Counted from the stretch's first letter, positions 2,856-27,827 are shown. The stretch: DNA of 64,000 nucleotides from a virus (IMGVR_UViG_3300024493_000235:64001-128000); one strand, 5' to 3'. Notes: generated by a model from the letters alone, not told the origin. Made by a program: numbers and translations.

Positions 2856-4160
2856 ATGGAAACACAAACAACGGAAATCATATCCAATTTTAATTTCAAT
2901 GCGATGTTTATAGCTGTCATTTCGATGTTTGCTATAACACTATTGTCAACGGTTTACAAGAAAGGTGTCGCCGGTTTATTTAAACTTATCTTTAAACACC
3001 TTACAACCCGTGTCGAAGTATCTTCAAGTCATTGGGCATACTTTCAATTAATCAGGCTTTTAAATATCAATGATGAAAAAGAAAAAAGAATTCGTACCTT
3101 TAGACTTAATAATGGCAGATGGGGAGATGAAAAGTTCATATCCTTAGGGATAGGAAAAGGCACACACTTACTTAAAATTTACTGTAAATTGTGTATAATA
3201 AACCTAGAAGAAAAAGACACACAATGGAATGAAGAAAAATTCATTCTAAATATTGTACTTTTTGGCCGTAATTTAGAATTTATTAAGCTCTTATTGACAA
3301 GGCTCTACGAGATTAAAAACAAACCGGATATCAACAACAACGAGATTGTGATTTATACAATCGAAGATAACACTTGGAAAGAGACAATCGTACTTGAAAA
3401 ACGTGCAGAAGATACAATCTTTATAGATTATCTTGCAAAACAAAAAGTGTTTAACTTTGTCGATAACTTCTATAATCGTAAAGATTGGTACGTTGAAAAA
3501 GGTATCCCATATCAAGCTGGTATATTATTATACGGGCCTCCAGGAACAGGAAAGACTTCGTTTGTTAAAGTGATAGCATCTAAGTTTAACAAAAATATTT
3601 ATTATCTTAAAGCAAGCGAACTTTCAAAACTTCAAACAGCTTTAGTAACACTCCCAAAAGATTGTATCCTTCTAATCGAAGATATCGATTCGAACGATCT
3701 AGTGCTTGATCGAAGTAAACGAGAGCAAAATAACGAAAAGCTCAATATCGAAACGAATGCTGACGGTAAAGCAAAAATCGCCGTCGAGAAAATAAACCTC
3801 TCGGATATTCTTAACTTCATGGATGGAGTTCTTTCTATTCCAGGAAGATTTTTAATTGCTACAACAAACAAAAAGGAGAAAATTGATCCTGCATTGCTTA
3901 GACCGGGAAGGATTGATATGGCTATTGAAATCGGTTATATCCATTACGGGAATTTCCTTGAGTTTATAGTAAAATATTACAACGATTATCTTACAAGCAT
4001 TCCTGATTATGGCCAATTCTTTGCACAAAAATCGGCGTTAAAGAAACTGAAAAGTGATACTCTTACTATTTCAGAATTGCAAAATGACTTCTTAGTTAAC
4101 GAACTATCGTTCGATGCAATGTTTGAGAAATATACTGAGTATTCAAAGGAGCTACCATGA
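2856..4160 (+). CDS. BCS1-like AAA+ ATPase with N-terminal membrane segment
   Basis: KGIPYQAGILLYGPPGTGKTS (Walker A), LLIEDID (Walker B), DPALLRPGRID (SRH). Confidence 0.85.
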   Translation: METQTTEIISNFNFNAMFIAVISMFAITLLSTVYKKGVAGLFKLIFKHLTTRVEVSSSHWAYFQLIRLLNINDEKEKRIRTFRLNNGRWGDEKFISLGIGKGTHLLKIYCKLCIINLEEKDTQWNEEKFILNIVLFGRNLEFIKLLLTRLYEIKNKPDINNNEIVIYTIEDNTWKETIVLEKRAEDTIFIDYLAKQKVFNFVDNFYNRKDWYVEKGIPYQAGILLYGPPGTGKTSFVKVIASKFNKNIYYLKASELSKLQTALVTLPKDCILLIEDIDSNDLVLDRSKREQNNEKLNIETNADGKAKIAVEKINLSDILNFMDGVLSIPGRFLIATTNKKEKIDPALLRPGRIDMAIEIGYIHYGNFLEFIVKYYNDYLTSIPDYGQFFAQKSALKKLKSDTLTISELQNDFLVNELSFDAMFEKYTEYSKELP

Positions 4161-4588
4161 AACTATATGTATTTTGGGGTGAAACACCAAGTTCTTTTCC
4201 ACCCTTAGTGTATCGAAATTCCATTGATTATCCTGAGATGTTTCACGACTATGATCCAAAGTATAGTCGTCCAAGACATCCTAAGACAATTGAAAAATAT
4301 ATCCGAGAATATGTCGAACGCGAATATGCTAAACCGGCTGATAATGATATATTTTTCATACGTACTTACTCAGAACTCGTTATAGATATTATTCGAGTTC
4401 TTGCGAAGAAAGCTTTACATGGAAATGACGGTATTCAATTTCCACATTACGACGAAATCACTTTCGTTGTCCCTAACGAAGAACGTGATGGCTATGAAGA
4501 AATCGGTTTGGATGAACATTCGATGATTGATTACTGGCCTCCTGGATTTTGCGATACCCACGAAAAAATTCGCATGCAACTTATCTAG
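4157..4588 (+). CDS. DUF3696-like / ABC-ATPase C-terminal fragment protein, paralogue 1
   Basis: YPE..HP, RTYSELVIDIIR, IDYWPPGFCD; ATGA overlap with the ATPase stop. Confidence 0.6.
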   Translation: MKLYVFWGETPSSFPPLVYRNSIDYPEMFHDYDPKYSRPRHPKTIEKYIREYVEREYAKPADNDIFFIRTYSELVIDIIRVLAKKALHGNDGIQFPHYDEITFVVPNEERDGYEEIGLDEHSMIDYWPPGFCDTHEKIRMQLI

Positions 4589-4646
4589 CGATAAAAACAA
4601 TCTAAATCTTAGATGTGTATCATCTAAGTGATTCAAAGGAGGTATT

Positions 4647-4933
4647 ATGAACCTATATGTATTCTGGAGCAATATCCCAGAATAATTTCCGAAATCATTA
4701 TTGATATCATAAGGTTGCTTGCCAGGTATTCTCTTTTGGATACAACCGATATCGAATTTCCCTTATATACGGAAATTACTTTTATCATTCCTGATAACGA
4801 TAATAACGATTATCTTGCATACCTTATGGATAAAAATTCGGCGATTGATAGTTGGCCTGCAGGATTTTGCGATGTATCAGGAAAAAATTCAAGCCAAACT
4901 ATTGGAATGTACATCATAACAAAAACAATTTAA
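4647..4933 (+). pseudogene. internally deleted, frameshifted paralogue 2
   Basis: AGGAGG + MNLYVFWSNIPE-stop, then SEIIIDIIR...IDSWPAGFCD in another frame; the middle of the family protein is missing. Confidence 0.7.
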
Positions 4934-4945
4934 AGGAGGCTATTT

Positions 4946-5410
4946 ATGCACATGTATGTGTTTTGGGGCGATATTCCATCGTCATTCATTCGCAAAGGCG
5001 ATGCTTTTAAGTACGGTTATCCTGAAATAAAGCGTAATGGAGGAAGTTATGGAGGCTTTCCGATTCATCCTAATGATATACAGAAGAGTATACAAGATCA
5101 TATAAGAAACTTATATGAGAATGGTATCAGGACTGTATATGTCACAACGTATTCGGAACTCGTCATCGATACCATAAGACTTCTTTCCTTAAAAGCATTA
5201 TTGAAATATGATGACGTGAGATTTCCATTACACGACCAAATAACCTTTATCATTCCAGACGAAAATGGTGTAGGGTTTTACGAAAAATATATAGACAGGC
5301 GTTCAATAATGGACAGTTGGCCTATAGGATTCTGCGATCAGCATTCCAAAGTAATGGATTTACTTTTGCAATATTCCGGTGACATAAAGGATGAAAATTC
5401 GAATGCCTGA
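4946..5410 (+). CDS. DUF3696-like / ABC fragment protein, paralogue 3
   Basis: YVFWG, YPE..PIHP, TTYSELVIDTIR, MDSWPIGFCD. Confidence 0.6.
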   Translation: MHMYVFWGDIPSSFIRKGDAFKYGYPEIKRNGGSYGGFPIHPNDIQKSIQDHIRNLYENGIRTVYVTTYSELVIDTIRLLSLKALLKYDDVRFPLHDQITFIIPDENGVGFYEKYIDRRSIMDSWPIGFCDQHSKVMDLLLQYSGDIKDENSNA

Positions 5411-5669
5411 CGAACACGAAATGTGCCTACCTCATGAGATACTTTCACGAATAGAAGAATCCGGGCATTTCAACAATGAAGCTGGAGACGGATCCTATAC
5501 AATGAAAGATATTTTACAATTAGACAGAGTGCCCGGCGACTTTCCTTGTTAGGAGTGTGATGGAAATTCAAACACTAAAATATGCCAAAATCTAATTGCT
5601 GCGGGACAGGGTCCATGTATGAATGATAACGGACTGGTACAGATGGCAGACTGGTATTATACACAGTAA
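5391..5669 (+). pseudogene. 92-codon ORF with one internal TAG (5550-5552)
   Basis: Frame open from ATG 5391 to TAA 5667 except for a TAG inside C-*-E-C. Confidence 0.45.
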
Positions 5670-5672
5670 TTT

Positions 5673-5696
5673 ATCGGGGCCAATTTCGGCCCCGAT
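5673..5696 (+). terminator. GGCC-core hairpin terminator
   Basis: ATCGGGGCC-aatttc-GGCCCCGAT followed by a T run. Confidence 0.8.
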
Positions 5697-5745
5697 TTTT
5701 TATTTTTATTCGTATCTACATGGTAATTAATTATATATTATAATT

Positions 5746-5820
5746 ATGAAAGATAAGAAATTGATTATAGTAGCTTACAGATCGTTGATCTGCGCGTATA
5801 ACAATAATCTTATCTTTGAA
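5746..5820 (+). ncRNA. structured leader motif, copy 1
   Basis: AAAGATAAGA...CAGATC-GTT-GATCTG...TCTTATCTTT nested stems. Confidence 0.6.
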
Positions 5821-5834
5821 AGAGGAGTTCCGAT

Positions 5835-6599
5835 ATGAAAAAGATTTGGGTAATCGCCTGTCTTATTCTAATCGCATTTGCAATCGTAAGTTGCAAAGCG
5901 AAGAACAAAGTCGTCGATGTGAAAAGCCAGGTAGAGGAAAGATTGCGTGCATATGTTGCACACGACCTTGAAACAGGGTCCGGAAAGGTTACAAAAGTTA
6001 CATTGAGTGATGCCCCCGAAGGCTCCGACCTTACATGGACTGCGTTTGCAACGTATACGCCAGATGCGGGTGATAATTATGATATTGAGTTATTGGTACA
6101 ACATCTTACCGCTACGAACTCTATCACATGGTGGTATGCAGCTAATTATCCGTATGGCGATAAAACAGTACCTCTTACAGGTGATATCGTTTTTGAAGAA
6201 CCGCTGAAATACCGAATGGAATACGATGTCCCATATGAAGAAGAGATGCCGGTACAATCTGTTTCAAATTCAAAAAATAAACAATCAGCAAACAATGAAT
6301 CGGCAGTTATTCTTGGCAAAGTGGAACAGAAAGGAAGTAAGTTTACTCTTTTTGATACAAACAAAAGAGAAATAACGCACATTGACATGCCAAATAGAGA
6401 GCTAATGGGCTGGGGCAATGATTTCTTCCTTACAAAATCAAAGGACAATACATTCAGATCGTATAATCTCAGAGGCACAGAAATCGGCTCAATAACCGTC
6501 AGTAATGTGGAGTCTGTAACCTTTGATAACGAAGGGTTTATTTTGAAACAAAAAGGATCGTCGCCGAGAAAATACAAAAAGAACGGACAATCAAGATAA
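5835..6599 (+). CDS. putative lipoprotein
   Basis: Signal peptide MKKIWVIACLILIAFAIVS-C. Confidence 0.75.
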   Translation: MKKIWVIACLILIAFAIVSCKAKNKVVDVKSQVEERLRAYVAHDLETGSGKVTKVTLSDAPEGSDLTWTAFATYTPDAGDNYDIELLVQHLTATNSITWWYAANYPYGDKTVPLTGDIVFEEPLKYRMEYDVPYEEEMPVQSVSNSKNKQSANNESAVILGKVEQKGSKFTLFDTNKREITHIDMPNRELMGWGNDFFLTKSKDNTFRSYNLRGTEIGSITVSNVESVTFDNEGFILKQKGSSPRKYKKNGQSR

Positions 6600-6668
6600 G
6601 TAATATCGGGGCCAATTTTGGCCCCGATATTTCCGTTTTTATTTGTATTTTAAATATACATAATCTAT

Positions 6669-6750
6669 ATGAGAAATAAGAAGATTAGATTATATGATTT
6701 GGGATTGTCAATCCTCGTCATTAACAAATACTTCTTAAAGTATCAAAGAG
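6669..6750 (+). ncRNA. structured leader motif, copy 2
   Basis: TAAGAAG...ATGA..GGATT-GTC-AATCC..TCAT...CTTCTTA. Confidence 0.6.
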
Positions 6751-6756
6751 AAAAAT

Positions 6757-6924
6757 ATGGACGACGATGAAGTGCTTACAGCAACGGTAGAATTGTATCT
6801 TTCTGCAGATAGAACTTACAAGCAACTACGTTTGGTACAGCTTATGCAGAAGGTATACGAAATCAACGACAAACTGGAAAGAGAAGCACAAAAGAAAAAG
6901 AAGCGCACGATTACAACACAATAG
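6757..6924 (+). CDS. small hypothetical protein (55 aa, not in the ORF track)
   Basis: MDDDEVL...KKKKRTITTQ-stop downstream of the leader motif. Confidence 0.55.
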   Translation: MDDDEVLTATVELYLSADRTYKQLRLVQLMQKVYEINDKLEREAQKKKKRTITTQ

Positions 6925-7126
6925 GAGAAATTAACCATGGAAAACGACGATCATTTTTTGATACTAAACAACCTTTTTGATTACTATTATAATAATTTAC
7001 AACGCGGGGATTTATTATCTGTGATACGTAACATCATCCTAGGGCCATTACGGCCCTAGGTGTTATTTTTTTGTATAAGTGAAATAAAATTTAAAATATA
7101 TATAATAAAAGATAAGGAGTCCTTTA

Positions 7127-8428
7127 ATGACAAAAGAAGATAAATATATAGTGAAAATGCTTGACTTACTTGAAAGAGATTCTCATTTAGATACACTTAC
7201 AAGGCCCATATTCTCCATCGTTCGAAATGATCCTAAACGTACAACATTTTCAAATAAGGGAATGCACTATACTTACTTAGCTACAATCCTTGATGAAAAC
7301 GGAAAAGTAATTATCGTAATAGACTATGACGGAGATCATTTCGGCAAAGATTACGCTATCGATATGAAAAAAGATATTCGTATCTCTTGCAGACCGAAAG
7401 GATCGAAGTTACTTGTACTCTTATCTAATATGCCGGAATTTCACGTTCAACAATGGATACTTAAATATTTACAGCAAGATGAAAAAACATTCTTCGAAGA
7501 TCGCTTTAAAACGTGGATATCAAGAGGATACTTTTGGTATAAAGATGTAAAAGATTTTAACACTCCCGATATTTTATTAAAAGATTGGAGCAACTTAAAA
7601 CATTTTACACCAAAAACAAGCGACACAAAGTCGTATTCAAATGTTATAAACGGAATTTCAAACATCGGAATGACCCTCATAAAATACTTTCATCCGTCGA
7701 TATATCGTTGTCGTATGAAAGACAGACAAAGCCCTGAAAATATATGGTACCACCAAGATAAAGATGGAAACTTTGATTTGTTGTTACAGATGTTTAATGA
7801 ACACAGAATGTATTTAGATTGGTTCATGTGTTACAGAGTGATCCAAATGTTTGAGACTACAGACGTTGCGCCAAGAATTCCGATATTAACTCCTTCACGA
7901 GCTAAACTATTGCTATATAAATATGCAGGAGAATTTAACGAAATCTTCAATCCATTTTCAGGATTCTCAAGCGTATTATTAGCCGCAACTTCTCTTGGAA
8001 AAAAATACCTTGGCTACGATATCAATCGTACAGTTGTGCACGAATCTCAATGCATGATAGAATGGTTTGAAAAACATAAAATTCCCATTGATGCACACGT
8101 TGACAGAAAAGACGCATTTATTGATAACGACAGCAATAACCCGTTTCAAAATACATCGAATACATACGGTTGTCTATTCTCGTGTCCTCCTAATGGAGAT
8201 ACAGAAATATATTATGACAACATGATACAAGAAGAATTCTCATCATCGTATTCCTGTGAACAATGGGTACAATGGTGTCTTGATACATACAAATGTAAAA
8301 GATACATCTTTGTTGTAGACTCTAGGTGTAATAAGTTTCAAGGATATGTACAAGAAATTCTTACAACTAAAAGAGTTTCAAGATATCCTTTTAGCACACA
8401 TGAGAAAGTGTTGGTGTTTGACAGGTAA
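7127..8428 (+). CDS. degenerate endonuclease-like + DNA methyltransferase-like fusion (paralogue A)
   Basis: IDYDGDHF; FNPFSGFS (motif I variant); SCPPN (motif IV variant); C-terminal HEKVLVFD shared with paralogue B. Confidence 0.7.
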   Translation: MTKEDKYIVKMLDLLERDSHLDTLTRPIFSIVRNDPKRTTFSNKGMHYTYLATILDENGKVIIVIDYDGDHFGKDYAIDMKKDIRISCRPKGSKLLVLLSNMPEFHVQQWILKYLQQDEKTFFEDRFKTWISRGYFWYKDVKDFNTPDILLKDWSNLKHFTPKTSDTKSYSNVINGISNIGMTLIKYFHPSIYRCRMKDRQSPENIWYHQDKDGNFDLLLQMFNEHRMYLDWFMCYRVIQMFETTDVAPRIPILTPSRAKLLLYKYAGEFNEIFNPFSGFSSVLLAATSLGKKYLGYDINRTVVHESQCMIEWFEKHKIPIDAHVDRKDAFIDNDSNNPFQNTSNTYGCLFSCPPNGDTEIYYDNMIQEEFSSSYSCEQWVQWCLDTYKCKRYIFVVDSRCNKFQGYVQEILTTKRVSRYPFSTHEKVLVFDR

Positions 8429-8441
8429 TGGAGGAAAACAC

Positions 8442-9503
8442 ATGATAGCAGACATAATTGTAGGTATGCAATACGGTTCGGAAGGGAAAGGTGCTTTTGT
8501 AAATCACGCATTACAAATGGAAACCGGTTATAATATGTCGATGAGAGTCCAGTCAACACAATCGGGACATACTATATATTTTAAAAATCAAAAATATATA
8601 ATGAGGTCCATTCCTTGTGCATGGGTAAACCCGAATGTCGAATTATTGCTAGGTCCCGGCGCTTTTACAGAAAGGGATATTCTTTTGGATGAAATAAAAA
8701 GTATAAATGGATCTCTTGGAGGAGATGTGCGCGATCGACTTTTTATAGACAAAAGAGTATTTGAAGTTGAGGACCGTGATAAGCGAAAAGAAGCAGATCA
8801 AAAACTTGATAGCAGAATTGGAAGCACAATTCACGGATCAGGTTCCGCACTAAACGAAAAAATATGGAGAAAACGCACAAGAGGTAATAAAAATTTTATC
8901 GAATGGTGCCTTGCAAATAAGATAAATGTCGTTGACACAATAGACCATATACAAAAAGGAACTCTTTTAATAGAAGGATGCCAGGGAGCTATGCTTTCTA
9001 TTCATACATCACCTTTTTATCCGTATGTAACATCCAGAGAAGCCACAGCTTCAGGAATCTTATCAGAATGTGGAATATCCCCACGTGATGTAAGAAATAT
9101 CTTTGGTGTCTTTCGTACATTGCCAATCAGAGTAGGAGGGAACTCAGGACCTACAGGATCAGTTGAAATTACTTGGGAAGAAGTTTCTAGGAGAGCAGGA
9201 TATAATGTAACACCAGAAAAGACTTCCGTTACTGGCAGAATTAGGCGTATCTTCGAGTTCTCATATGATGATATGGCTCACGCTATTAGAGTAAATAAAC
9301 CCACGCACTTAATTATGACCTTTGCAAATTACATCGCTCCTTGTTTTGGAATTGATTCATGGGACAAAATTGACATCAATTCCAAAAGAAACATAGATAC
9401 ATATACATCTGTAGTAAACAAGCTTTGCAAAAATATTACACCTAACAATACTTATGGTATTGTATCAATTAACACAAATCCAATTAATTGGATAGATATC
9501 TAA
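8442..9503 (+). CDS. purZ: PurZ-like adenylosuccinate synthetase family protein (2-aminoadenine pathway)
   Basis: GMQYGSEGKG (Ser in place of the PurA Asp), RTLPIRVGGNSG, TSVTGRIRR, TFANY; 353 aa from the ATG after GGAGG. Confidence 0.75.
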   Translation: MIADIIVGMQYGSEGKGAFVNHALQMETGYNMSMRVQSTQSGHTIYFKNQKYIMRSIPCAWVNPNVELLLGPGAFTERDILLDEIKSINGSLGGDVRDRLFIDKRVFEVEDRDKRKEADQKLDSRIGSTIHGSGSALNEKIWRKRTRGNKNFIEWCLANKINVVDTIDHIQKGTLLIEGCQGAMLSIHTSPFYPYVTSREATASGILSECGISPRDVRNIFGVFRTLPIRVGGNSGPTGSVEITWEEVSRRAGYNVTPEKTSVTGRIRRIFEFSYDDMAHAIRVNKPTHLIMTFANYIAPCFGIDSWDKIDINSKRNIDTYTSVVNKLCKNITPNNTYGIVSINTNPINWIDI

Positions 9504-9593
9504 TTGATAAATAAATAAAACCAAGGGGCCAAATGGCCCCTTGGAGTTTTTCTTTTGACTATTCGCCACCCGATGCTGGAAAGACGCTCATCA
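9504..9593 (+). repeat. relic duplicate of 11695-11767 joined to 11881-11898
   Basis: 38 bp identical between 9543-9580 and 11730-11767. Confidence 0.85.
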
Positions 9594-9653
9594 TTTTTAA
9601 AAATAAATTAGAATATATATAATAATGGTATATTAAATATAAGGAGAATACTT

Positions 9654-11705
9654 TTGAAAGATATGGAGCTTACATGCACTAAATGTAACAAAACATTTTC
9701 ATTAACACGTAACGCATTTTTGAAACGGCAATACAGAGGTGTCGATACATCTCTATGTCAATGGTGTAGTAAAGCACACACAGAATTCAAAGATCATATA
9801 TATGTGCCAAAGTCAGAAAATCATATTTGCCAAAAATGCGGTAAATCCTTTACACTTACAAGAAGTGCATTTAATAAACGGAAATGCAAAAAACAAGATA
9901 CTACATTATGCAATCCGTGCAGAACAACTCAAACTACTTCTGATCGTCACGGATATGCATCTCCGCTTGCAAATCCTAATATATTACAGAAAACAAAAGA
10001 TACAATGCAAGAAAAATACGGTACAACATACGCACTACAGATTAAAGACGTTGAGGGTGTAGGATATCAAAAAGCTGTCACAACATTTCAAGCTAATTAT
10101 CACACTAATGCAGCAAATCCGTTAATGCATGCAGAAACACTTGAAAAAATAAAAGCAACAAATGTGGATAGATATGGAGATGCTAACCCATTGAATAATC
10201 CTGAAGTCAGAGCAAAGCAACAACAAACAATGATTAAACTATATGGAGGAAAACCCCAAGCAGAATCGGAAGAATGTAGAAAAAGAGCACTAGAAGTATT
10301 TCGAACAAGATACGGTCAAAATTGTTATTTGCAGTCTGCTCATTTCTCTGAGAAGATGGTACTAAAATTTGGAACAAGATACCCACAACTTACAACTCAT
10401 AGTAGTAGCAAAGAAGAAAGACATGTGTTCAGCAAAATTGAAGAACTCTTTTATCACGGTTTACTTAAAAATTCCAAATATACATTTATTTACAATGATC
10501 GAGAAAAATATAAAAACAGTGCTTTATTCACTTTCTCTTATGGTGATACCGATCATCCGTGGGACGGAATAGTGCTCAACGAAGATTATAGTATTGCACT
10601 CGTAATCGATTATGATGGTGAATATTATCATGGCGATTATCCTGACTATGATGGCGTACATTCTTCAGAAGAAAGGGATTCTATCAGAATGAAATGTGTT
10701 CCTAAAGATGCTAAGATACTTATCATCTATAAAGATACTCAGGATTACATTAAAGATATCGTTGACATACTTGGTATGGATTACGACGAATGGCTTAATA
10801 AGTTATACAACTATTGTTGTGGTATCGATTTTCCATTCTATCACAATTATTATTACGAAAAACAACTTTTACACAGTTGGAAAGCGCTTGCACTATTTAC
10901 TCCTGAGAAATGTGATAAAAAATCGTGGACAAAGCTCACCCAAGGACGCTCTACACTAGGTGGAAAACTTATTAATTATTTTCACCCGTCTATTTATAAA
11001 TGTCACACCAAAGGAAAAATATCACCATATGATGCATGGTATCATACCGATGAAAATGGTAATCGTGATTTACTTCGTAAATGTATTCGTAATAGAAGTA
11101 TTTATGCAAATTCGTATAAACCATATCGGATACTGCAAGGTTTTAACATTTCTGATATTGCACGAAAAATAACTACATTTTCAGCATCCAGAGCAAAAAT
11201 GTTACTCATAAAATATGCGCAAGAATTTGACCAAATCTTTGATCCTTTTATGGGATTTTCCGGTCGTCTTCTTGGAACTGTGGCTCTTAAAAAAGCATAC
11301 ATAGGAAACGACATAAATAAAACCATTATACAAGAAGCAAAAAATCTTATTAGATGGTTTGAAAGGCATAACATCGAAAATAGAGTTATTTTGACAAACA
11401 ATGATATACAATCGATCCCAAAAGAATATTCGATGCATAACGACGAATGCTTGTTTACGTGTCCTCCATACAAAGATACCGAAATTTGGTACGACGAAGT
11501 ATCAAAGCGAGAGATTAGATCTAATATGACAGCGGAGCAATGGGTTGAATTTTGTCTTGACACATTTAACTGTAAAAGGTATATATTCGTCGTCGATTCA
11601 CGATGTAACAAGTACAACAGCAATGTACAAGAAATATTTGTTAATAGAAGATCTGCAAAATACCATGTAAATCTTCATGAAAAAGTACTTGTTTTTGATA
11701 AATAA
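9654..11705 (+). CDS. Zn-ribbon + YG repeats + endonuclease-like domain + amino-type DNA methyltransferase (paralogue B)
   Basis: CxxC pairs; KYG/RYG repeats; IDYDGEYYHG; FDPFMGFSGRLLG; TCPPY. Confidence 0.75.
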   Translation: MKDMELTCTKCNKTFSLTRNAFLKRQYRGVDTSLCQWCSKAHTEFKDHIYVPKSENHICQKCGKSFTLTRSAFNKRKCKKQDTTLCNPCRTTQTTSDRHGYASPLANPNILQKTKDTMQEKYGTTYALQIKDVEGVGYQKAVTTFQANYHTNAANPLMHAETLEKIKATNVDRYGDANPLNNPEVRAKQQQTMIKLYGGKPQAESEECRKRALEVFRTRYGQNCYLQSAHFSEKMVLKFGTRYPQLTTHSSSKEERHVFSKIEELFYHGLLKNSKYTFIYNDREKYKNSALFTFSYGDTDHPWDGIVLNEDYSIALVIDYDGEYYHGDYPDYDGVHSSEERDSIRMKCVPKDAKILIIYKDTQDYIKDIVDILGMDYDEWLNKLYNYCCGIDFPFYHNYYYEKQLLHSWKALALFTPEKCDKKSWTKLTQGRSTLGGKLINYFHPSIYKCHTKGKISPYDAWYHTDENGNRDLLRKCIRNRSIYANSYKPYRILQGFNISDIARKITTFSASRAKMLLIKYAQEFDQIFDPFMGFSGRLLGTVALKKAYIGNDINKTIIQEAKNLIRWFERHNIENRVILTNNDIQSIPKEYSMHNDECLFTCPPYKDTEIWYDEVSKREIRSNMTAEQWVEFCLDTFNCKRYIFVVDSRCNKYNSNVQEIFVNRRSAKYHVNLHEKVLVFDK

Positions 11706-11745
11706 AACCGAGAGGCCATTTGGCCCCTCGGAGTTTTTCTTTTGA

Positions 11746-12801: not shown

Positions 12802-12812
12802 GTGTTACCTCC

Positions 12813-15954: not shown

Positions 15955-15982
15955 TGCTGTGGGATAAAGGGGAATTTTTGAA

Positions 15983-17839: not shown

Positions 17840-17859
17840 TTTATATAGGAGGAAAAGAA

Positions 17860-18408: not shown

Positions 18409-18411
18409 CCT

Positions 18412-18929: not shown

Positions 18930-18986
18930 TTACTATCCGGGGCCACAACGGCCCCGGATATTTTATTAATAGCGAAGGAGAAACCT

Positions 18987-19595: not shown

Positions 19596-19684
19596 TAAAC
19601 TACCGTGGCCATCATTATGGCCACGGTATTTCCGTTTTTATTTGTATTTTAATTATATATCATATTAATATCAAGGAGATTAAT

Positions 19685-20047: not shown

Positions 20048-20080
20048 AATATCCTCAATGGCCAAATGGCCATTGAAGTA

Positions 20081-20368
20081 TTATTTCTTTTTTGTTCGAT
20101 ATTTAAGGCATACAATAAGTGTAAATAAACATACTACACCCTCAGATATTTCTGTTATAAAAAAGACGATATCGGAAGAGAATATAAAAGAATATGCCGC
20201 CATTAAAGAATATCCTATGATCCAAACGATCCAGCTTGAAATTGCAATATCATCGGATTTCTTTGTACGAATTGTTTTTACTATTTGTGGAAAGAATGAG
20301 AAAAATCCAAAAGCATTACATACGATAAGCATAACAGCCGAAATAAAATTAGGTTCAAGTCCTAACAT
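20081..20368 (-). CDS. PQ-loop / SemiSWEET-like membrane protein
   Basis: FFPQIVKTIRTKKSDDIAI; three hydrophobic segments; AGGAG RBS. Confidence 0.75.
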   Translation of the reverse strand: MLGLEPNFISAVMLIVCNAFGFFSFFPQIVKTIRTKKSDDIAISSWIVWIIGYSLMAAYSFIFSSDIVFFITEISEGVVCLFTLIVCLKYRTKKK

Positions 20369-20496
20369 ATTTTCTCCTGATATTATTTAAATTAAAGATA
20401 GTTTTAGCTATATATAATATAACTAATAAAAGACACTTTAAGGTACTTCGATTAACCCAATGTTACTCTAGTACCGCAACACAAAAGGAGAAGTAT

Positions 20497-21093
20497 ATGA
20501 TGACATACAAAAACCAAAGCGAAATTCTTGATGTATTATTGGGAGTATCGTATGGTATTATCACAGGTACGAGTAAAACTAATAGTATCGATATTCTCGA
20601 TGTCGGAAGTGGTAAAACGAGTATCACAAGCATTGTAAACTCGTGTGAGGTTTTGGGTTTTAAAGCAAAAGTCGATGCCATTATTCATCCTGACGACAGC
20701 ATGAAAATTAAGTCTGTTAAAAATTTGCATCTTCCAAGTTATGTGCATATACATACCGAAGATATGAAAGATCTCAAATGGGAAAAACAGTACGATATTG
20801 TGTTTGCGCATTTATTTTTGGGATTTGCTTCGAGTTTTAACAGTTCGCTAAATTCCTATATGGCTTTAATGTCCGTATTTGGCATTAAAAGTAAAATATA
20901 TGTTATCATGGATTATAAGGAAAATCCGGATATTGCCTGGGATAATATTCGTATGCATCTTAGTGCTGTAAGAGACCATGAATATGGTAAGACTGTATTG
21001 TTGTACAACGAATTTCCGCTACAGAAACCTGTCAACTTTGCACAATTTACAGGGAAGACGGTTGTTAGCTATATTATTGCTAGCAAGAAATAA
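20497..21093 (+). CDS. class I SAM-dependent methyltransferase-like protein
   Basis: ILDVGSGK, YDIVF. Confidence 0.6.
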   Translation: MMTYKNQSEILDVLLGVSYGIITGTSKTNSIDILDVGSGKTSITSIVNSCEVLGFKAKVDAIIHPDDSMKIKSVKNLHLPSYVHIHTEDMKDLKWEKQYDIVFAHLFLGFASSFNSSLNSYMALMSVFGIKSKIYVIMDYKENPDIAWDNIRMHLSAVRDHEYGKTVLLYNEFPLQKPVNFAQFTGKTVVSYIIASKK

Positions 21094-21104
21094 TTGGAGG
21101 ATTT

Positions 21105-21409
21105 ATGAAAGTAAACAACGATTTGTTCAAACTGCATTCCCTCACAGTGTTTTGCAAGTTAAAAAAGTATATCTTACATTTCATGTGACAGATGAGACCG
21201 GTGATGTCGTTATAGAAGATATAAAGAATCTCACTCCAACAGATGCCGATAGAGATATCTTTCTTTCTGATCTTTCATTTGCTGCAACAAATGTCACTGT
21301 TAATTTAAAAAGTGAAAGTGCAAAAAATTCTGTTTATGATGGTGTATCTGTTGTAATTAGAAAAACAAGCATCGATCATTATGAATTTGTCTATGCAGAA
21401 CCGCACTAA
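21105..21409 (+). CDS. hypothetical protein requiring a -1 frameshift
   Basis: GGAGG + ATG 21105; in-frame A_AAA_AAG at 21161-21167; -1 frame open to 21409. Confidence 0.45.
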
Positions 21410-21438
21410 ATTTGTTTCTATTTACACAGGAGGAAAAC

Positions 21439-22122
21439 ATGACCACAAACGAAATCATGTCAAAGATTTGGGAAAACGACATGAACAAGCGACAGAAGGA
21501 CCATGAAGAAGAAAGAGAAAAGAGAAAATCGTATCGTAATGATTTTCTTCACTGGATGGATATGGTAACTCGTGACATTGCAAAAGCCGTGAGTACCATT
21601 TGTACCAATTTCATACTCGATACATCAAACAATGTTGAAAACGAAGTTGATGGTAAACATACTACCAAGTGTGTTGAAATCGGGGCTGGAAAAATTACAT
21701 TCGCTATTCCAATAAACAGTACAAGGATTATAAACTTTTATGGAAGCAGCGCAGAGAACTTCAACGACTTCGCAGACGGCATTACCTGGAAAATATTGTA
21801 CGTTCATCCGAAGGTGCTTCATATTCCAAATAACCTTAGAAAGGTTTTTCGAAGAATCATAAAAGATGAACCTCTTATTACAAAAGGTGCCATCAGTAAT
21901 GATGTACTTTCCGATGACATATTTTATGAAATCGTCGTTCCGCGCATTAGTTTTAAACAATGGGCAATTACATGTATAGAACGTTTGGAAAAACAAATTC
22001 GAGAGAATATGTCAAAAACGTTTGATACGATCGAATCTCTTAGCATTGTCGTCACAGAAATTAACGGAACGGATGAGACATTTACTTTCACTTGTGATAT
22101 TACAATTCCCTTTAATATCTGA
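21439..22122 (+). CDS. hypothetical protein
   Basis: Start MTTNE after AGGAGG. Confidence 0.75.
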   Translation: MTTNEIMSKIWENDMNKRQKDHEEEREKRKSYRNDFLHWMDMVTRDIAKAVSTICTNFILDTSNNVENEVDGKHTTKCVEIGAGKITFAIPINSTRIINFYGSSAENFNDFADGITWKILYVHPKVLHIPNNLRKVFRRIIKDEPLITKGAISNDVLSDDIFYEIVVPRISFKQWAITCIERLEKQIRENMSKTFDTIESLSIVVTEINGTDETFTFTCDITIPFNI

Positions 22123-22209
22123 TAATTATAGGGGCTAAAATTAGCCCCTATAATTATTTTTGTTTCTATATTATTTTTAGGTATATATCATTTATCTGGA
22201 GGAATAAAA

Positions 22210-22716
22210 ATGAATATAGCGTCATATAAATGTCTTACCATAGATCAGATAGAAGATGTCGTTAAAGTACTTCATCGAATTGTCCCGACTCTTAAAGTGT
22301 CATATGATCTTGGTAAAGCGGCTGTCCGTGTAGAATTTCCGGACAAATCATATTTTTGGATGATGGGTACGCATTTCGTTCCTGCAAGTGTGCATGACGA
22401 AGTTGATCTCGTTATCCATATCGATATGCGTGATAGAAACGAAGTAGATTTTGTACACACACTTTTAGCATCAGACAGATTCTTTCAATCGCTTATCAAA
22501 AACCATACTGTGTGGAGTTTTATGGAACCGGGCTTTATAGAAGAATGTGATAACGAATATTACTGTTTCACTTTCAGAGTCCATACTCTTCACTTTGAAG
22601 TCTGTTACGACGGTCCACACAATTGGAAGGACGAAATTAATCATGATTCTAAAGACTTCGATGAAGACATCAAAAAGGTATTTGAAAATGTAAAACAGCA
22701 CATGATGTCTTTGTGA
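22210..22716 (+). CDS. hypothetical protein
   Basis: Promoter at 22182, GGAGG RBS, terminator. Confidence 0.75.
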   Translation: MNIASYKCLTIDQIEDVVKVLHRIVPTLKVSYDLGKAAVRVEFPDKSYFWMMGTHFVPASVHDEVDLVIHIDMRDRNEVDFVHTLLASDRFFQSLIKNHTVWSFMEPGFIEECDNEYYCFTFRVHTLHFEVCYDGPHNWKDEINHDSKDFDEDIKKVFENVKQHMMSL

Positions 22717-22809
22717 TATAACATACGCCGCAAATGCGGCGTATGTTATTTTTTTGTTGCAATAATTTATTTAATTATATATAATAAAAATACACAGAGG
22801 AGATTTAAA

Positions 22810-23262
22810 ATGATTTATACGTCTTATTTCGCTATAGCGCAACATGTACCGTTTCCAATATCGATCGCTTTAAGGGAGCCTGGAAACTACCCTAAAATAC
22901 CGTTTTTAGCCCCAACAAGTGAGCTATTATATGCGTACAAGCATAAAAACGTTAGTGAGACCCAATATATCGAGATATACAACGAAATGCTTCACAAAAT
23001 AAAGCCCGAAAGGATTATCTCTGAAATAAAGAAATTAAAGAAGAATTTTTACTATACTGAAGAAGATGTCACGTTGTGTTGTTGGGAAAAATCTGGTTAT
23101 TTTTGTCACAGACATTTAGTATCACAGTATTTATCTGAAGCTGGATATATGGTGGCAGAATGGGCGAAATCACCATCTTTATATATTGCTAACGCTCCAA
23201 AACATGGAAAACTTGCACCGGGATCTTCTGTTTCAGAATCAAATCCTGACGGATGGATTTAA
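22810..23262 (+). CDS. DUF488-family protein (paralogue)
   Basis: MIYTSYFA, CCWEKSGYFCHRH. Confidence 0.7.
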   Translation: MIYTSYFAIAQHVPFPISIALREPGNYPKIPFLAPTSELLYAYKHKNVSETQYIEIYNEMLHKIKPERIISEIKKLKKNFYYTEEDVTLCCWEKSGYFCHRHLVSQYLSEAGYMVAEWAKSPSLYIANAPKHGKLAPGSSVSESNPDGWI

Positions 23263-23288
23263 AAATATTTTGAGTATATATCATCTAT

Positions 23289-23370
23289 ATGAGAAAATAT
23301 AGAGATTAGATTATTAAATCTTGAGTCGTTGACTCGTGTTAGTAACAATATCCTGTATAAGTATCAAAGG
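23289..23370 (+). ncRNA. structured leader motif, copy 3
   Basis: ATATAG...TCTT-GAGTC-GTT-GACTC-GTG...CTGTAT. Confidence 0.6.
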
Positions 23371-23377
23371 TTGTTAT

Positions 23378-23824
23378 ATGACTACAGCAATATATTTTAG
23401 AGACTTCACGATGACACTTCCTGAGAAAGACCGGAGAATAACCGCATTCTTAAGAATGATAAATTATCTCGCGGAGAAGAATGTCCACGCTTCAATACGG
23501 CACGAATCGGTTGAAGAAATGGAACTCACTGTATTCCGTACATCAAAAGAAAACGGTTACAGAGTTCTGTACTACGCGCAAGGCGATATTAAAATCGTCA
23601 TAGCCGATACATTTGGCAGTATCAACCAGCCCGCGATGTATACTAACATGGTGCAGGGCATTGTCGGCAAAGACGCTAAGGAAAATCTCGTCCACATCGA
23701 AGAGATCTATACATGCGACAGGAATCTCATTGGAAAGGTTATCAATGCGGACAGCGAAGAGAAAAAAGCTGCCGCAAAAGAAAATCTCAAGAAGTTTATT
23801 TACACAAACGATCCGATTCAGTAA
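23378..23824 (+). CDS. hypothetical protein
   Basis: Start MTTAIY after the leader motif; terminator follows. Confidence 0.7.
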   Translation: MTTAIYFRDFTMTLPEKDRRITAFLRMINYLAEKNVHASIRHESVEEMELTVFRTSKENGYRVLYYAQGDIKIVIADTFGSINQPAMYTNMVQGIVGKDAKENLVHIEEIYTCDRNLIGKVINADSEEKKAAAKENLKKFIYTNDPIQ

Positions 23825-23866
23825 ACGTATATGGAGACCAAAACGGGTCTCCATATATTATTTTTT

Positions 23867-24499
23867 TTACACTAAAGGATACTTAGCATTTTCTGGTCTA
23901 TCTGTTAATGCGAGTTTTCTTAAAGCAGCATTCCTGTCTACACCACCAGCTTCATCTGCTTGTTTTTCGGACCATCGAGTTTTGTAGTACCAATAGTGCC
24001 TATCGTATATACACCAAGCTACATGGAACCACCTATCCCACATGTTGCAAAACACCGAACTGTATACACCAACAGTTGGCAGGTATAGCCACCCTAATGT
24101 TTCTGATTGTCCTATTTTATGTCCTTTTTCATGTCGTATGGTATATAAATCATGGGCTGTATTTAAACAGATATATTTTCCCATTGAAAACCCTGAAACA
24201 TTACCAAGTATTTTATCATTTTTATGGGAACAATAATCTGCTACATAAATTTTAAAGCCGGTTAATTCTTCCATTCCGTATAGGAATTTTAATTCTCTCT
24301 GACTTAGCACAATAAGTCTTTCTTTCCATAAACGACTCATTCCATAACCCAATGCGTTCTGAGGTAATTGCCACACCCATTCAAATAAAAACTTACCAAC
24401 CTTTTTGGCGTAAAGTTTTATATAATCCAGTGCAGTTTTAAAAAATGGCAATATTTTGGTAGATAAAAATATACCGATTTTTGTAAATAGATTTTTCAT
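23867..24499 (-). CDS. late-expressed HExxH-containing protein
   Basis: WQLPQN, RHEKGH, LGWLYLP; late promoter 24513-24524 and GGAGG RBS. Confidence 0.65.
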   Translation of the reverse strand: MKNLFTKIGIFLSTKILPFFKTALDYIKLYAKKVGKFLFEWVWQLPQNALGYGMSRLWKERLIVLSQRELKFLYGMEELTGFKIYVADYCSHKNDKILGNVSGFSMGKYICLNTAHDLYTIRHEKGHKIGQSETLGWLYLPTVGVYSSVFCNMWDRWFHVAWCIYDRHYWYYKTRWSEKQADEAGGVDRNAALRKLALTDRPENAKYPLV

Positions 24500-24574
24500 A
24501 TATACCTCCATTTACAAAAATGTTTTTCTACGATCCTATCGTATCTACATAAATCTTAAATATATATCATATTA

Positions 24575-24655
24575 ATGAGAGATAAGATATTTAGATTATA
24601 ATGTCTTGGATCGTTGATCCGCGCATGTAACAAGTATATCTTATGATATCAAAGG
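24575..24655 (+). ncRNA. structured leader motif, copy 4
   Basis: ATAAGATAT...TCTT-GGATC-GTT-GATCC-GCG...ATATCTTAT. Confidence 0.6.
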
Positions 24656-24663
24656 TGATAATT

Positions 24664-25338
24664 ATGAAAATTAATAGCATGATGTTTCAAAAGAAACGTA
24701 TACCTCTTACATGTTTAAAAAGCATTGTTGACATGCATCAGAAAGCGTGGTCTTTCGATTTGGGATCTCCATTCCTAAATTGGATTGCGGTTCTTGTAAA
24801 AGTGTGCGATAAAAAGAACCGAAAGCACAATGTATGTGTTTTAACGTTTGATATGAGCGAATTAGATTGTAAAACACTTAAACTCAGAGTTGACGAACTT
24901 ATTGGTTTTGCTCTAGTGTACAATGCGAATAAGCCAAAACAGTACCACCCGATTTTATGTATGATATACTGGTTTTGTTATATCATACTCCTATTTTCAA
25001 AACATGGACGTGGGTGTCTACGATGGAGAAAAATGTTCGCGTCACATCAAGAAGCTGCCTTAACTCTAGGAAAACAAGCATTATTCGGTTTGACAAAAGG
25101 AAAAACTTCGGAAGGCCTCGTTATTGTTACAGACCCAAAATTTCAAAAACAAGGTGTGTACACAGGTATGATGAATGCGATATTCAAAAATATGAAAGGA
25201 TATTTTATATTTCACACATCGACAGATTGTACATACCAAGCACATAATCGTTTTGAATGTAAAAAGATTTTTGAGGTTCCAATGTTTTTCCCTGAAAAAG
25301 AAATAACGTTTATAATGTACAAGAAGCTCGAAGTCTAA
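24664..25338 (+). CDS. GNAT-like acetyltransferase
   Basis: VTDPKFQKQGVY resembles the acetyl-CoA-binding motif A. Confidence 0.5.
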   Translation: MKINSMMFQKKRIPLTCLKSIVDMHQKAWSFDLGSPFLNWIAVLVKVCDKKNRKHNVCVLTFDMSELDCKTLKLRVDELIGFALVYNANKPKQYHPILCMIYWFCYIILLFSKHGRGCLRWRKMFASHQEAALTLGKQALFGLTKGKTSEGLVIVTDPKFQKQGVYTGMMNAIFKNMKGYFIFHTSTDCTYQAHNRFECKKIFEVPMFFPEKEITFIMYKKLEV

Positions 25339-25350
25339 AGGAGGCGCAGC

Positions 25351-25521
25351 ATGGAAAAGATAAGATGTAAGAAATGCGGCAGAGCGCTGAAGTCCTGTGA
25401 AAAGAATTTATGTCCGTATCACCGAAACTTACTTGATAGAAAAATCAAGGTGTTCACAATAGTATGCGGTGTCGCTGTTATCATCTTTATAATCATCGGT
25501 GCTATTTCAAAGATGATGTAA
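25351..25521 (+). CDS. small Zn-ribbon + transmembrane protein (56 aa, not in the ORF track)
   Basis: AGGAGG RBS; CKKCG...CPYH then a hydrophobic segment. Confidence 0.65.
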   Translation: MEKIRCKKCGRALKSCEKNLCPYHRNLLDRKIKVFTIVCGVAVIIFIIIGAISKMM

Positions 25522-25537
25522 TGCATAGGAGCGAAGT

Positions 25538-25795
25538 ATGAAAAAGAAAGTTCAGTATTACACCATTCAAGAAACGTGCAAAATAATGCATATAAGTTTA
25601 AGTACTGCAACACGTGGATTACGAGCATTAAAAGATAAACCTTGGACTGAGGCTGTTCGCTTAAGAAATCGTCGTGTACTAATACCTCGGAAAGTTGTTG
25701 ACAATCTTTCAGACATACATCCGTACATTCCAATGAAGTATAAAAAGAAAAAGGCAGAAATAAAGCCGATTAAAAGAAAAAGTACAAAACGATAA
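25538..25795 (+). CDS. excisionase/MerR-like HTH DNA-binding protein
   Basis: YYTIQETCKIMHISLSTATR. Confidence 0.6.
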   Translation: MKKKVQYYTIQETCKIMHISLSTATRGLRALKDKPWTEAVRLRNRRVLIPRKVVDNLSDIHPYIPMKYKKKKAEIKPIKRKSTKR

Positions 25796-25884
25796 ATCAT
25801 TGGGGAGCTATTAGCTCCCCAATGTTATTTTTTTTAATATACATTTTACCTATATATAATTAACTTAAGATAAGGAGAATAAAA

Positions 25885-26289
25885 ATGATAAAAAACATAT
25901 ATGTCAATGATGATGACGACAGTGAGTTTGTCGGCGATGTATTTGTTGAATTACAACAACACAAGATACGTAATTTTAATGCTTTTCGTAAAAAGAAAAA
26001 TCATGATCCACACCTTTATATTGAAACGGTATACGATCTTTCAAAACAACCGATTCCAGATAGAGATGATGTACGATCTGGTATTATGATACCAGACGAA
26101 ACATTTTTCATACGCGTTCCAAAAGAAGAGTTGGATAAAGGTTTAATATCAACTGTCATATTAGTAAAACTTTTCGAGCATTATATCGACAGTAAGATAC
26201 TTAAAAAGCTTTTACCAAATGAAGAGAATCTGCGAGACATGATTAATACCGCCTTAAGGACAAGCAAAATGAGGTGGATTTATACATGA
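25885..26289 (+). CDS. hypothetical protein
   Basis: Promoter at 25851 plus RBS. Confidence 0.7.
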   Translation: MIKNIYVNDDDDSEFVGDVFVELQQHKIRNFNAFRKKKNHDPHLYIETVYDLSKQPIPDRDDVRSGIMIPDETFFIRVPKEELDKGLISTVILVKLFEHYIDSKILKKLLPNEENLRDMINTALRTSKMRWIYT

Positions 26290-26316
26290 TTCATACATAA
26301 CTCTGGAGGGCACTAT

Positions 26317-27075
26317 ATGGCTAAAACGAAAAAATGCACTTGTTGCAAAAAAATAAAGCCCTTATCAGAATTTCACAAACAAAAAGCCTATAAGGACGGA
26401 TATCGTAGCCAATGTAAAAAATGTTTACGTAAAAAAGATAAACATCGATACAATAACGATCCGGAGGTTATTAAAAAGAGAAAAGAAAAAGAAGCGCAAA
26501 AGAAGTTATTTCAGCAGCATTTGAAAAAACGATGCGCATGTTGTAAAAAAATAAAACTTTTATCTGCGTTCAGTAAAAATTCGGCAACAAAAGACGGATA
26601 TCAATATTTGTGTAAAAAATGCACAAGTGAAAAAGATAAACGTCGATACAATAACGATCCAGAAGTTATTGCAAAAAGGAAAGAAAAGGAGGTACGAAAA
26701 GAGTTATTTCAGTATTCGAAAAAATACTGTACCTATTGTAAACAGATAAAACCTTTATCTGCATTTCGCAAAGATTCAAGAACAAAAGATGGATACCGAT
26801 ATTGGTGTAAAGAATGCGTAAATACATATCAGCAAACACCAAAATGTAGAGAACGACGACGTAATGGTGCAAAAATATATTACAAAACCCACAAAAATAA
26901 TTGTAGCACATTACGCAGACTGGCAAAGGCATACTTTAAAGAATTAGGACTGGATCCTAAAAATGTAAGCGAAGAATTTCTGCTATTAAAAGCAGAGCAT
27001 ATAAGATTACGACGACAACTCAAATCAAAGGAGAAGAAAAATGGCAGTTCCAAAACCGGAGTTAAGCGTGGATGA
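26317..27075 (+). CDS. triple Zn-finger basic protein (homing-endonuclease-type N-terminal repeats, no nuclease motif seen)
   Basis: Three copies of CxxCK-IKxLS-F-K...DGY...CK-C. Confidence 0.65.
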   Translation: MAKTKKCTCCKKIKPLSEFHKQKAYKDGYRSQCKKCLRKKDKHRYNNDPEVIKKRKEKEAQKKLFQQHLKKRCACCKKIKLLSAFSKNSATKDGYQYLCKKCTSEKDKRRYNNDPEVIAKRKEKEVRKELFQYSKKYCTYCKQIKPLSAFRKDSRTKDGYRYWCKECVNTYQQTPKCRERRRNGAKIYYKTHKNNCSTLRRLAKAYFKELGLDPKNVSEEFLLLKAEHIRLRRQLKSKEKKNGSSKTGVKRG

Positions 27076-27280
27076 TGTTTATGAGACTATCGCAGAACAG
27101 ATACAAAAACTAAGAGCGAAAACGGTGAAAACAAGCGACATCGCAACAGCGAATGCTATTGCAAACCAGATCGGAAAAGGCTTAAAAGCTGCAGCTCTTC
27201 AGATCAAATATACCGAGTTAAAGAATACTGCAGCAGGAAAAAATATGTCGGTACCTATTGTCGAACCAAGGAAAAAGTAA
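27041..27280 (+). CDS. hypothetical protein
   Basis: AAGGAG RBS; terminator follows. Confidence 0.7.
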   Translation: MAVPKPELSVDDVYETIAEQIQKLRAKTVKTSDIATANAIANQIGKGLKAAALQIKYTELKNTAAGKNMSVPIVEPRKK

Positions 27281-27317
27281 ATTTATCCAGGAGCCTTAAG
27301 GCTCCTGGATTTGTGTT

Positions 27318-27827
27318 TTATTCTGTCCCTATTTTTTCTTTGAGTTTCTGCGAATAATCTGATATTTCATCTATTATGTTAGACACTTTATCGCAGAACC
27401 CTTTGGGCCGATTGGTCAACGTTGTATACTGATCCATATCGACATTGTCGTAAAAGTCTGGATCCAAAGCGTCAGGTACAACAAATCGTATTTCTTTGGG
27501 GAAAGGAAATACGACGCTATAGCAATCCTTTAAGAAAGCTTTTAATGATACAAGACGAATAAGTTCAATTACGACATCAGAATATGTATAAATACACGCA
27601 GGAAATGCGTGATGTACATATAACTTTTCTCCGAAATCAAGTAATTTCTTTTCAATCTCGTCGGGATGAATTGGAAGTCCTCCGTTAACTTCGATGTTAG
27701 ATTCCCTTAACGTTTGAGTAACTTCAGGCCAAAATAATTCCGACTCAAAGAAATGTACACCCTCCCATTTTTTCAAATCAAAATTCTTTGGAACTGAACC
27801 CCAAAATACATATAATTTTTTATCCAT
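27318..27827 (-). CDS. DUF3696-like / ABC fragment protein, paralogue 4
   Basis: LYVFWG, WPE..PIHP, YTYSDVVIELIR, PKGFCD; minus-strand promoter 27846-27855. Confidence 0.6.
   Translation of the reverse strand: MDKKLYVFWGSVPKNFDLKKWEGVHFFESELFWPEVTQTLRESNIEVNGGLPIHPDEIEKKLLDFGEKLYVHHAFPACIYTYSDVVIELIRLVSLKAFLKDCYSVVFPFPKEIRFVVPDALDPDFYDNVDMDQYTTLTNRPKGFCDKVSNIIDEISDYSQKLKEKIGTE

Follow-up and report, generated by a model that had tools for sequence, protein, structure and literature searches.

The window analysed here, a stretch of 64,000 nucleotides, corresponds to bases 64001–128000 of the 268,442-bp virus record IMGVR_UViG_3300024493_000235 (CheckV completeness 91%), which is the genome of a 268-kb jumbo phage. 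Four copies of a small gene lie in the window and a fifth just ahead of it. As shown below, the five genes make up a phage-specific family, called mini-NsnB in what follows, whose members derive from an NsnB-like ABC ATPase of the Menshen type (AAA_15/AAA_21 plus DUF3696) but are miniaturised and catalytically dead. NsnB is the ABC ATPase of the NsnA-NsnB-NsnC anti-phage system Menshen, and DUF3696 is its C-terminal tail (PMC12065111).

Five gene copies in one genome

Three intact paralogues were found in the window: paralogue 1 at 4157–4588 on the plus strand (143 amino acids, aa), paralogue 3 at 4946–5410 on the plus strand (154 aa) and paralogue 4 at 27318–27827 on the minus strand (169 aa), the latter being a single minus-strand gene amid plus-strand genes. 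They can be aligned from end to end, with 33–43% identity, and share an N-terminal YVFWG, a PE...HP pair, TYSE-VI--IR and [WR]PxGFCD, the tail motif of paralogue 4 reading RPKGFCD. A broken paralogue is located at 4628–4933 on the plus strand (profile match 6.3e-42), where an ATG at 4647 opens 12 codons (MNLYVFWSNIPE) ending at a TAA (4683–4685). Its C-terminal two-thirds (101 codons) are open in a different frame, with the motifs intact, within the 4628–4933 open reading frame (ORF), and about 55 middle codons are absent between the two parts. This copy is a probable pseudogene, or possibly a short form. The ORFs and the full-length alignment thus confirm the four paralogues and the motifs listed in a preliminary description of the window, which had already taken the copy at 4647 for a pseudogene.

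A profile of the four window copies recovers every copy in the genome with E-values from 6e-32 to 2e-78 (7.8e-70 for paralogue 4), and the likeness among these four is far above chance. The fifth copy, P0005 (155 aa), is intact and lies at genome positions 63137–63604, i.e. 863–396 bases ahead of the window start, and is devoid of the WPxGFCD motif. A six-frame scan of the whole 268-kb genome with the hidden Markov model (HMM) gave exactly five family loci, the next-best match having an E-value of 0.6.

Homology to NsnB and other DUF3696 ATPases

When the family alignment (21 sequences) was compared by hhalign with 24 full-length DUF3696 ATPases, the two were paired with 98.7% probability (E = 1.7e-16), family residues 20–139 corresponding to positions 517–635 of 640, that is, to about the C-terminal 120 residues of AAA_15/AAA_21/DUF3696 ATPases. 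The only PADLOC defence model matched by the window copies is NsnB, which recognises copy 1 (1.3e-5, model positions 271–342 of 345) and copy 3 (2.4e-5), the two matches covering model positions ~254–343 of 345; among the short relatives, it reaches 1e-25 for P0011 and 1e-21 for P0017. An exhaustive profile search of 1.84 billion representatives returned 27 proteins, nearly all short and metagenomic, and extended to P0021, a 661-aa AAA_15/AAA_21/DUF3696 ATPase matched at residues 543–651. The homology to AAA_21/DUF3696 ATPases advanced in the preliminary description is thus borne out. The reference motifs it had quoted for these enzymes are also correct, since FEQPELHLHP, VETHSEYFIDRLR and WPEGFFDQ stand in the consensus of the 24 proteins and recur in one bona fide NsnB.

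Three relatives match PF12476 (DUF3696) above its cut-off of 22 bits, namely P0017 (2.2e-11, 44.3 bits), P0006 (1.6e-5, 25.5 bits) and P0011 (7.3e-5, 23.4 bits). The family HMM also matches the C-terminus of NsnB from Vibrio phage L9-1 (5.9e-13) and, among full-length proteins, gives its best scores to the long (~640 aa) DUF3696 ATPases, P0021 first. Concerning phage protein families, phrog_12026 is weakly matched by copy 3 (2.3e-4) and copy 1 (4.9e-3), with no match for the other two copies scanned. A word-indexed search with one copy retrieved only that copy and, with the family profile, six proteins only; scanning the viral collection with single proteins gave no match, and megablast of the operon described below gave no match among phage records.

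Predicted fold

The AlphaFold2 model of copy 3, obtained with the family alignment, has a predicted local distance difference test (pLDDT) score of 93.8 and a predicted template modelling (pTM) score of 0.85. Its elements are a strand (residues 2–7), a second strand (21–24), a helix (42–58), a strand (63–68), a helix (71–85), a hairpin (99–116) and a last helix (132–153). In a search of 48,161 chains conducted independently of Foldseek, about 45 of the 50 best matches were ABC ATPases, with Z-scores of 7.0 for Rad50 (root-mean-square deviation 2.8, 84 residues), 7.0 for FbpC, 6.3 for UvrA, 5.9 for the retron Eco8 ATPase and 5.5 for GajA; a second structural alignment gave 6.7 for the retron Eco8 ATPase and about 5 for PtuA. 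As for the ESM Atlas model, its comparison with bacterial AAA_15/AAA_21/DUF3696 ATPases (331–502 aa) yielded template modelling scores, taken by query, of 0.51–0.65 over residues 1 to ~148. The core sheet modelled for copy 3 can be superposed on solved ABC nucleotide-binding domains, and the structural likeness to ABC ATPase cores that the preliminary description had set as a test is found by both approaches, with Foldseek alone falling short of significance.

An internally deleted ATPase

In the structural alignments, residue 1 of the model pairs with chain residues ~23–36, which form the strand feeding Walker A, and an unguided MAFFT alignment placed the LYVFWGxxP of the phage proteins against LTIFCGANSSGKS of full-length ATPases. 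Since their first strand is the one leading into Walker A, the mini-NsnB proteins are not the plain C-terminal fragments initially supposed; they look like ATPases that have lost the whole stretch separating the P-loop strand from the Walker B strand and whose P-loop has decayed. The retained elements are, in order, the Walker A-leading strand, the Walker B strand with its PE...HP loop, the H-loop strand and helix, a beta-hairpin, the WPxGF[CF]D motif and the C-terminal DUF3696 helix.

Alignment with the full-length ATPases confirmed that Walker A and the signature motif are absent and that the H-loop His is replaced by Tyr. At Walker A (GxxxxGK[ST]), the strand and the first Gly are kept (LYVFWG), followed by a loop reading xxPS/K-x-F without the Lys-Ser/Thr. 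The helical lobe bearing the Q-loop and the ABC signature motif is missing, with 13–20 residues between the first and the Walker B strands vs. ~230–480 in the parent. The ETHSE of the ATPases has become TTYSE at the H-loop, Tyr being present in all four intact copies (TYSE/TYSD), while the broken copy reads IISE at this position. At Walker B and the D-loop, the VIE-QPELHLHP of the ATPases is replaced by KYG-YPE, an insert of 9–14 residues and then HP. The loss of the Walker B acids, which had also been claimed, holds for the acidic residue preceding PE, mostly gone, and not for PE, which is invariant and, like HP, kept in the phage proteins. Finally, WPxGFFD of the ATPases reads WPxGFCD in the tail. 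With no Walker A lysine, Q-loop, signature motif or H-loop His, the proteins should be dead enzymes, for which ATP binding, ATP-sandwich dimerisation and hydrolysis would all be impossible.

An intermediate condition is seen in the metagenomic protein P0011 (176 aa; ITLITGYNNTGKT), which keeps GxxxxGKT, the H-loop His and the DUF3696 tail. Its model (pLDDT 76) shows a miniature ABC core, Walker A helix included, ahead of the same C-terminal module, and P0011 may stand between NsnB and the dead phage forms as an intermediate that still binds nucleotides.

Relatives, distribution and evolution

Relatives of ~100–125 aa, including gp152 and gp153 of Pseudomonas phage pf16, CDS0023 of Pseudomonas phage Milchi and many metagenomic proteins, lack the first two strands (P-loop strand and Walker B strand). 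Because those of ~100 aa keep only the H-loop strand, the helix, the hairpin, WPxGFCD and the tail helix, the core common to all forms is the DUF3696 tail module. The family HMM matches pf16 gp152, gp153 and Milchi CDS0023 with E-values of 2.8e-19, 4.7e-16 and 2.4e-16, respectively. Cultured-phage members are found in pf16 (as the tandem pair gp152/gp153) and Milchi, and also in Astolliot and the jumbo Vibrio phage D479; in the virulent phages pf16 and Milchi, they sit in runs of small hypothetical genes. The nearest Atlas feature clusters (50, 61 and 187 members) consist of hypothetical proteins of 123–131 aa that are 67–100% viral, one of them having PF12476 in 10% of its members. As a whole, the mini-NsnB family is essentially viral. 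One metagenomic relative is carried by a 34-kb contig on which the neighbouring products weakly resemble phage tail or immunoglobulin-like proteins and a radical SAM enzyme.

A tree was built on the shared region, in which the very long branch of L093 reflects a badly extracted row and is to be ignored. The ~150-aa type forms a clade (support 97/97) uniting the five copies with P0006–P0009 and P0147, the full-length C-termini form a clade of their own (96/89), and the ~100–125 aa forms fall in a separate, weakly supported group (89/51). The backbone is unresolved and compatible with either one or several origins of the phage forms. Within the ~150-aa clade, copy 1 groups as sister to the broken copy (99/87), from which a recent tandem duplication followed by decay can be deduced; the birth-and-death turnover first suggested for these genes is therefore supported.

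One broken copy, and a fifth one that has lost its tail motif, might suggest that the genes are functionless relics, either of a Menshen-like system that the phage formerly carried in full or of a captured host gene, all the more as complete Menshen cassettes do occur in temperate phages. The temperate P2-like Vibrio phage L9-1 has such a cassette (L013:1264–5334), composed of NsnA (4.8e-108), NsnB (4.7e-103) and NsnC (6.7e-27). This explanation is nevertheless most improbable: four intact ORFs at 33–43% identity keep a very confident fold and common motifs, the ~150-aa architecture is a supported clade with metagenomic relatives, and viral clusters of 50–187 members display similar features, whereas persistence and expansion of this kind are not expected of relics.

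The L9-1 cassette has a cytosine methyltransferase on one side and the cI repressor on the other, and all three of its genes are recorded as hypothetical. In the jumbo phage, the whole genome has no AAA_21 match, no full-length ABC ATPase of the NsnB kind and no clear NsnA, the NsnB model matches the family only, and the sole DUF262 (GmrSD_N) match is sub-threshold (16.9 bits) and far from the copies. On these grounds, a Menshen system of the phage's own, to which the copies would belong, was rejected, the NsnC models not having been searched.

On the cellular side, DUF3696 ATPases of the long type (~640 aa) were found at more than 566 loci in reference genomes, sited in defence islands. At the three loci inspected (L020:5001–7968, L059:4989–7854 and L042:5001–7854), a long DUF3696 ATPase (~600–645 aa) is followed by an overlapping partner gene of 316–352 aa, the L020 pair adjoining BREX PglX. 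These partners have no Pfam or PADLOC match; a 490-aa partner from Treponema matches NsnC (7e-10). The long ATPase and its partner make up a two-gene, sensor-less relative of Menshen.

The operon and its AAA+ ATPase

Three of the copies belong to one transcription unit on the plus strand. Its first gene (2856–4160) encodes a 434-aa AAA+ ATPase (Pfam AAA 1.7e-18; phrog_7485 2.9e-73) with a hydrophobic, probably membrane-spanning N-terminal segment, and its stop codon and the start codon of copy 1 overlap in an ATGA (4157–4160). Copy 1, the broken copy and copy 3 follow, and then a putative gene of 53 codons (5391–5552; ORF list, no PHROG match), the last before the terminator, which overlaps the end of copy 3. 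Upstream, a terminator-like hairpin at 2572–2595 (10-pair stem and T run) ends the preceding gene, and a second one at 2801–2822 (9-pair stem and T run) stands just 5' of the operon, with an AT-rich TATATATAAT element downstream of it. A hairpin at 5673–5696 (9-pair stem with 7 GC pairs, and T run) closes the unit, no plus-strand terminator-like site being found between it and that at 2801–2822. The stop/start overlap and the position of the hairpins substantiate the operon of three copies behind an AAA+ gene that had been proposed. An AACA-N6-TA match upstream of the operon is at chance-level expectation and was given no weight.

The AAA+ ATPase had been called BCS1-like. While its AAA domain is clear, its match to BCS1_N (E = 0.0034, 17.8 bits) is under the Pfam cut-off of 28.1 bits, so that the assignment is borne out in part.

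With copy 1 overlapping the AAA+ gene and three copies in its transcription unit, the mini-NsnB proteins might serve the phage itself, as adaptors, substrates or regulators of the membrane-anchored AAA+ ATPase, or in the control of a phage-encoded toxin-like RNase. Such a role is unlikely, since the association is not conserved. Homologues of the AAA+ ATPase occur in 223 phage records, mostly of jumbo phages, where they are annotated as 'mitochondrial chaperone' or 'AAA-ATPase'; tblastn found no small family protein in these records, nor did the family HMM detect anything around the AAA+ gene in Noxifer, Moabite and EarlPhillipIV (E > 0.1). Conversely, an AAA+ neighbour is missing for two of the five copies here and for the family members of pf16 and Milchi. 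Coupling to the AAA+ gene is thus a particularity of this phage and not family-defining, and the AAA+ ATPase was rejected as a conserved partner of mini-NsnB.

In Serratia phage Moabite (L016:548–6542), runs of tightly packed hypothetical genes of 89–184 aa stand on either side of the AAA-ATPase homologue, and none of these genes matches the mini-NsnB family.

Proposed function

In the AlphaFold 3 models of Li et al. (2025), NsnB is predicted to form a tetramer that holds the N-terminal inPIN domain of NsnC between paired DUF3696 tails, the NsnB4-NsnC2 clamp being predicted in 23 of the 24 systems modelled; at interface 1, the tails of two protomers are adjacent to one another, and the NsnC N-terminal domains are extremely polymorphic (PMC12065111). 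The module common to all phage forms is this same DUF3696 tail region. Since the parent is NsnB and the published models place effector docking on the retained part, the idea of anti-defence decoys becomes more concrete, and we tentatively propose, giving it somewhat less than an even chance, that the mini-NsnB proteins are effector-docking decoys interfering with Menshen-type defence. Early in infection, they would mimic the effector-docking module of the host ATPase, most likely by binding the N-terminal docking domain of NsnC-like effectors, so that the toxic nuclease would be kept away or uncoupled from its controlling ATPase; capping of NsnB itself would be a less likely mode. Several diverged copies would then constitute a panel fitting highly polymorphic effector docking domains. 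That the intact copies have diverged yet keep a confident fold (as modelled for copy 3), within a clade supported at 97/97, points to selection and counts in favour of the decoy proposal.

A different mode of interference would be that of a poison subunit: by joining host NsnB-like ATPases rather than the effector, the mini-proteins would cap one of the oligomer interfaces and thereby prevent the tetramer from forming or the ATP-driven switch from operating. The strands of the core and the D-loop-like PE...HP, close to the canonical ABC dimer interface, are indeed retained, the published model sets the DUF3696 tails of two protomers next to each other at interface 1, and dominant-negative mimicry of a defence subunit is already known, for instance from AcrIF3. 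However, the canonical ABC dimer needs Walker A from one protomer and the signature motif from the other, both of which are missing, and this makes the mode less likely; moreover, the ~100-aa relatives without the Walker B strand keep the tail, an indication that it is the tail that does the work. A small probability is thus left to it.

Several observations weigh against the docking decoy. Regarding ancestry and fold, no window copy matches Pfam, DUF3696 included, at E ≤ 1, and Foldseek against the PDB gave no significant match, its best being the defence ATPase PtuA and OLD with E ~ 0.1. The structural Z-scores (≤ 7.0) are moderate and in a range that the tool calls common; the weight of the fold assignment comes from the consistency of the matches and from sequence homology. 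Concerning the target, the NsnB-NsnC interface is itself a published prediction. The fifth copy, as noted, is devoid of WPxGFCD. If NsnB keeps NsnC inactive, stripping NsnC off could harm the phage unless the mimic silences it. Lastly, copy 1 is translationally coupled to the AAA+ ATPase, which is a hint of some function within the phage.

Docking and the AAA+ ATPase could also be combined in a two-part machine, in which mini-NsnB adaptors would dock Menshen-type ATPase-effector complexes or free effectors and deliver these to the BCS1-like AAA+ ATPase, co-translated and anchored in the membrane, which would unfold or extract them, the copies again acting as a panel for polymorphic docking domains; this is quite improbable. 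The probability left beyond the decoy, poison-subunit, phage-internal and relic explanations belongs to something not yet thought of.

Neighbouring genes

The fifth copy lies downstream of a promoter and hairpin-leader cassette that is also present ahead of at least six other genes of the phage. This AT-rich promoter-like element with its hairpin leader (core ATCGTTGATyCGyG), directly 5' of at least seven genes with the fifth copy included, was located at ~5720–5834, 23280–23377, 24560–24642 and 43490–43590 in the window and at L005:1380–1500. Between the fifth copy and the operon, L005:2072–2866 (window start to 502) encodes a 264-aa protein with a DUF488/DUF488-N3a match (1.4e-6).

Two paralogous proteins with a weakly DNA-methylase-like C-terminal half are encoded on the plus strand at 7127–8428, ~1.7 kb from the three-copy operon, and at 27954–30029, ~130 bases from the minus-strand copy (N6_N4_Mtase 0.0012; phrog DNA methyltransferase 2e-5; DUF7487 in the longer one). 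Next to the former, 8439–9503 (plus strand) codes for an adenylosuccinate synthetase homologue (PF00709, 4.4e-38) shorter than cellular PurA, which could be a PurZ-type enzyme for 2-aminoadenine DNA. The DUF262 sensor class of Menshen reportedly reads modified DNA, which would make a PurZ-type enzyme relevant. Finally, the 252-aa product of 26317–27075 (plus strand) consists of three Cys-rich repeats (CxxC...CxxC) and has a Stc1-domain match (7.5e-7).

Comparison with known systems

In the literature searched, no inhibitor of Menshen is described, and how the system works is known from predictions only. Were the decoy reading true, mini-NsnB would be the first candidate anti-Menshen protein and would provide an independent test of the NsnC docking site on NsnB. 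It would also be a clear addition to the few phage counter-defence proteins derived from defence genes, the rarity of which in phages has been called puzzling; the precedents reviewed are AcrIF3, a mimic of the Cas8f helical bundle, viral Cas4 homologues and a nuclease-dead phage Cas9 (PMC11656645). The presence of five copies in one genome may also illustrate the way in which a phage deals with effectors of high polymorphism, and the idea is directly bench-testable because family members are present in the cultured Pseudomonas phages pf16 and Milchi.

With NsnB and the long DUF3696 ATPases, the phage proteins have in common the Walker B strand, PE..HP, the H-loop strand, the helix, the hairpin, WPxGF[FC]D and the tail helix, in the same core fold. 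They differ in size (~150 aa vs. 345–660 aa), in lacking the Walker A lysine and the Q-loop/signature lobe, in the H-loop His to Tyr change, and in that no NsnA partner was found for the phage copies, NsnC models not having been searched in the genome. By its sequence, mini-NsnB is best described as a derivative, and not a working member, of NsnB. The proteins of PHROG 12026, pf16 gp152-gp153 and Milchi CDS0023 belong to the same family according to the HMM, and pf16 also displays a tandem duplication, but these forms are shorter (~100–125 aa), without the P-loop and Walker B strands, and fall in another tree group.

As for inhibitors of other immune systems, the logic proposed for mini-NsnB is that of AcrIF3, in which the virus keeps a piece or a dead copy of an immune component that competes for a partner; the immune system and the fold are different, and AcrIF3-type inhibition is experimentally supported while that of mini-NsnB is inferred. 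The Gabija inhibitor Gad1 wraps around the complex without being related to its target. The class of target would be alike, since Gabija GajAB (PDB 8u7i) is also an OLD/ABC-type ATPase-effector complex and GajA is among the structural matches (Z 5.5), but mini-NsnB, unlike Gad1, would be a candidate inhibitor homologous to a subunit of its own target.

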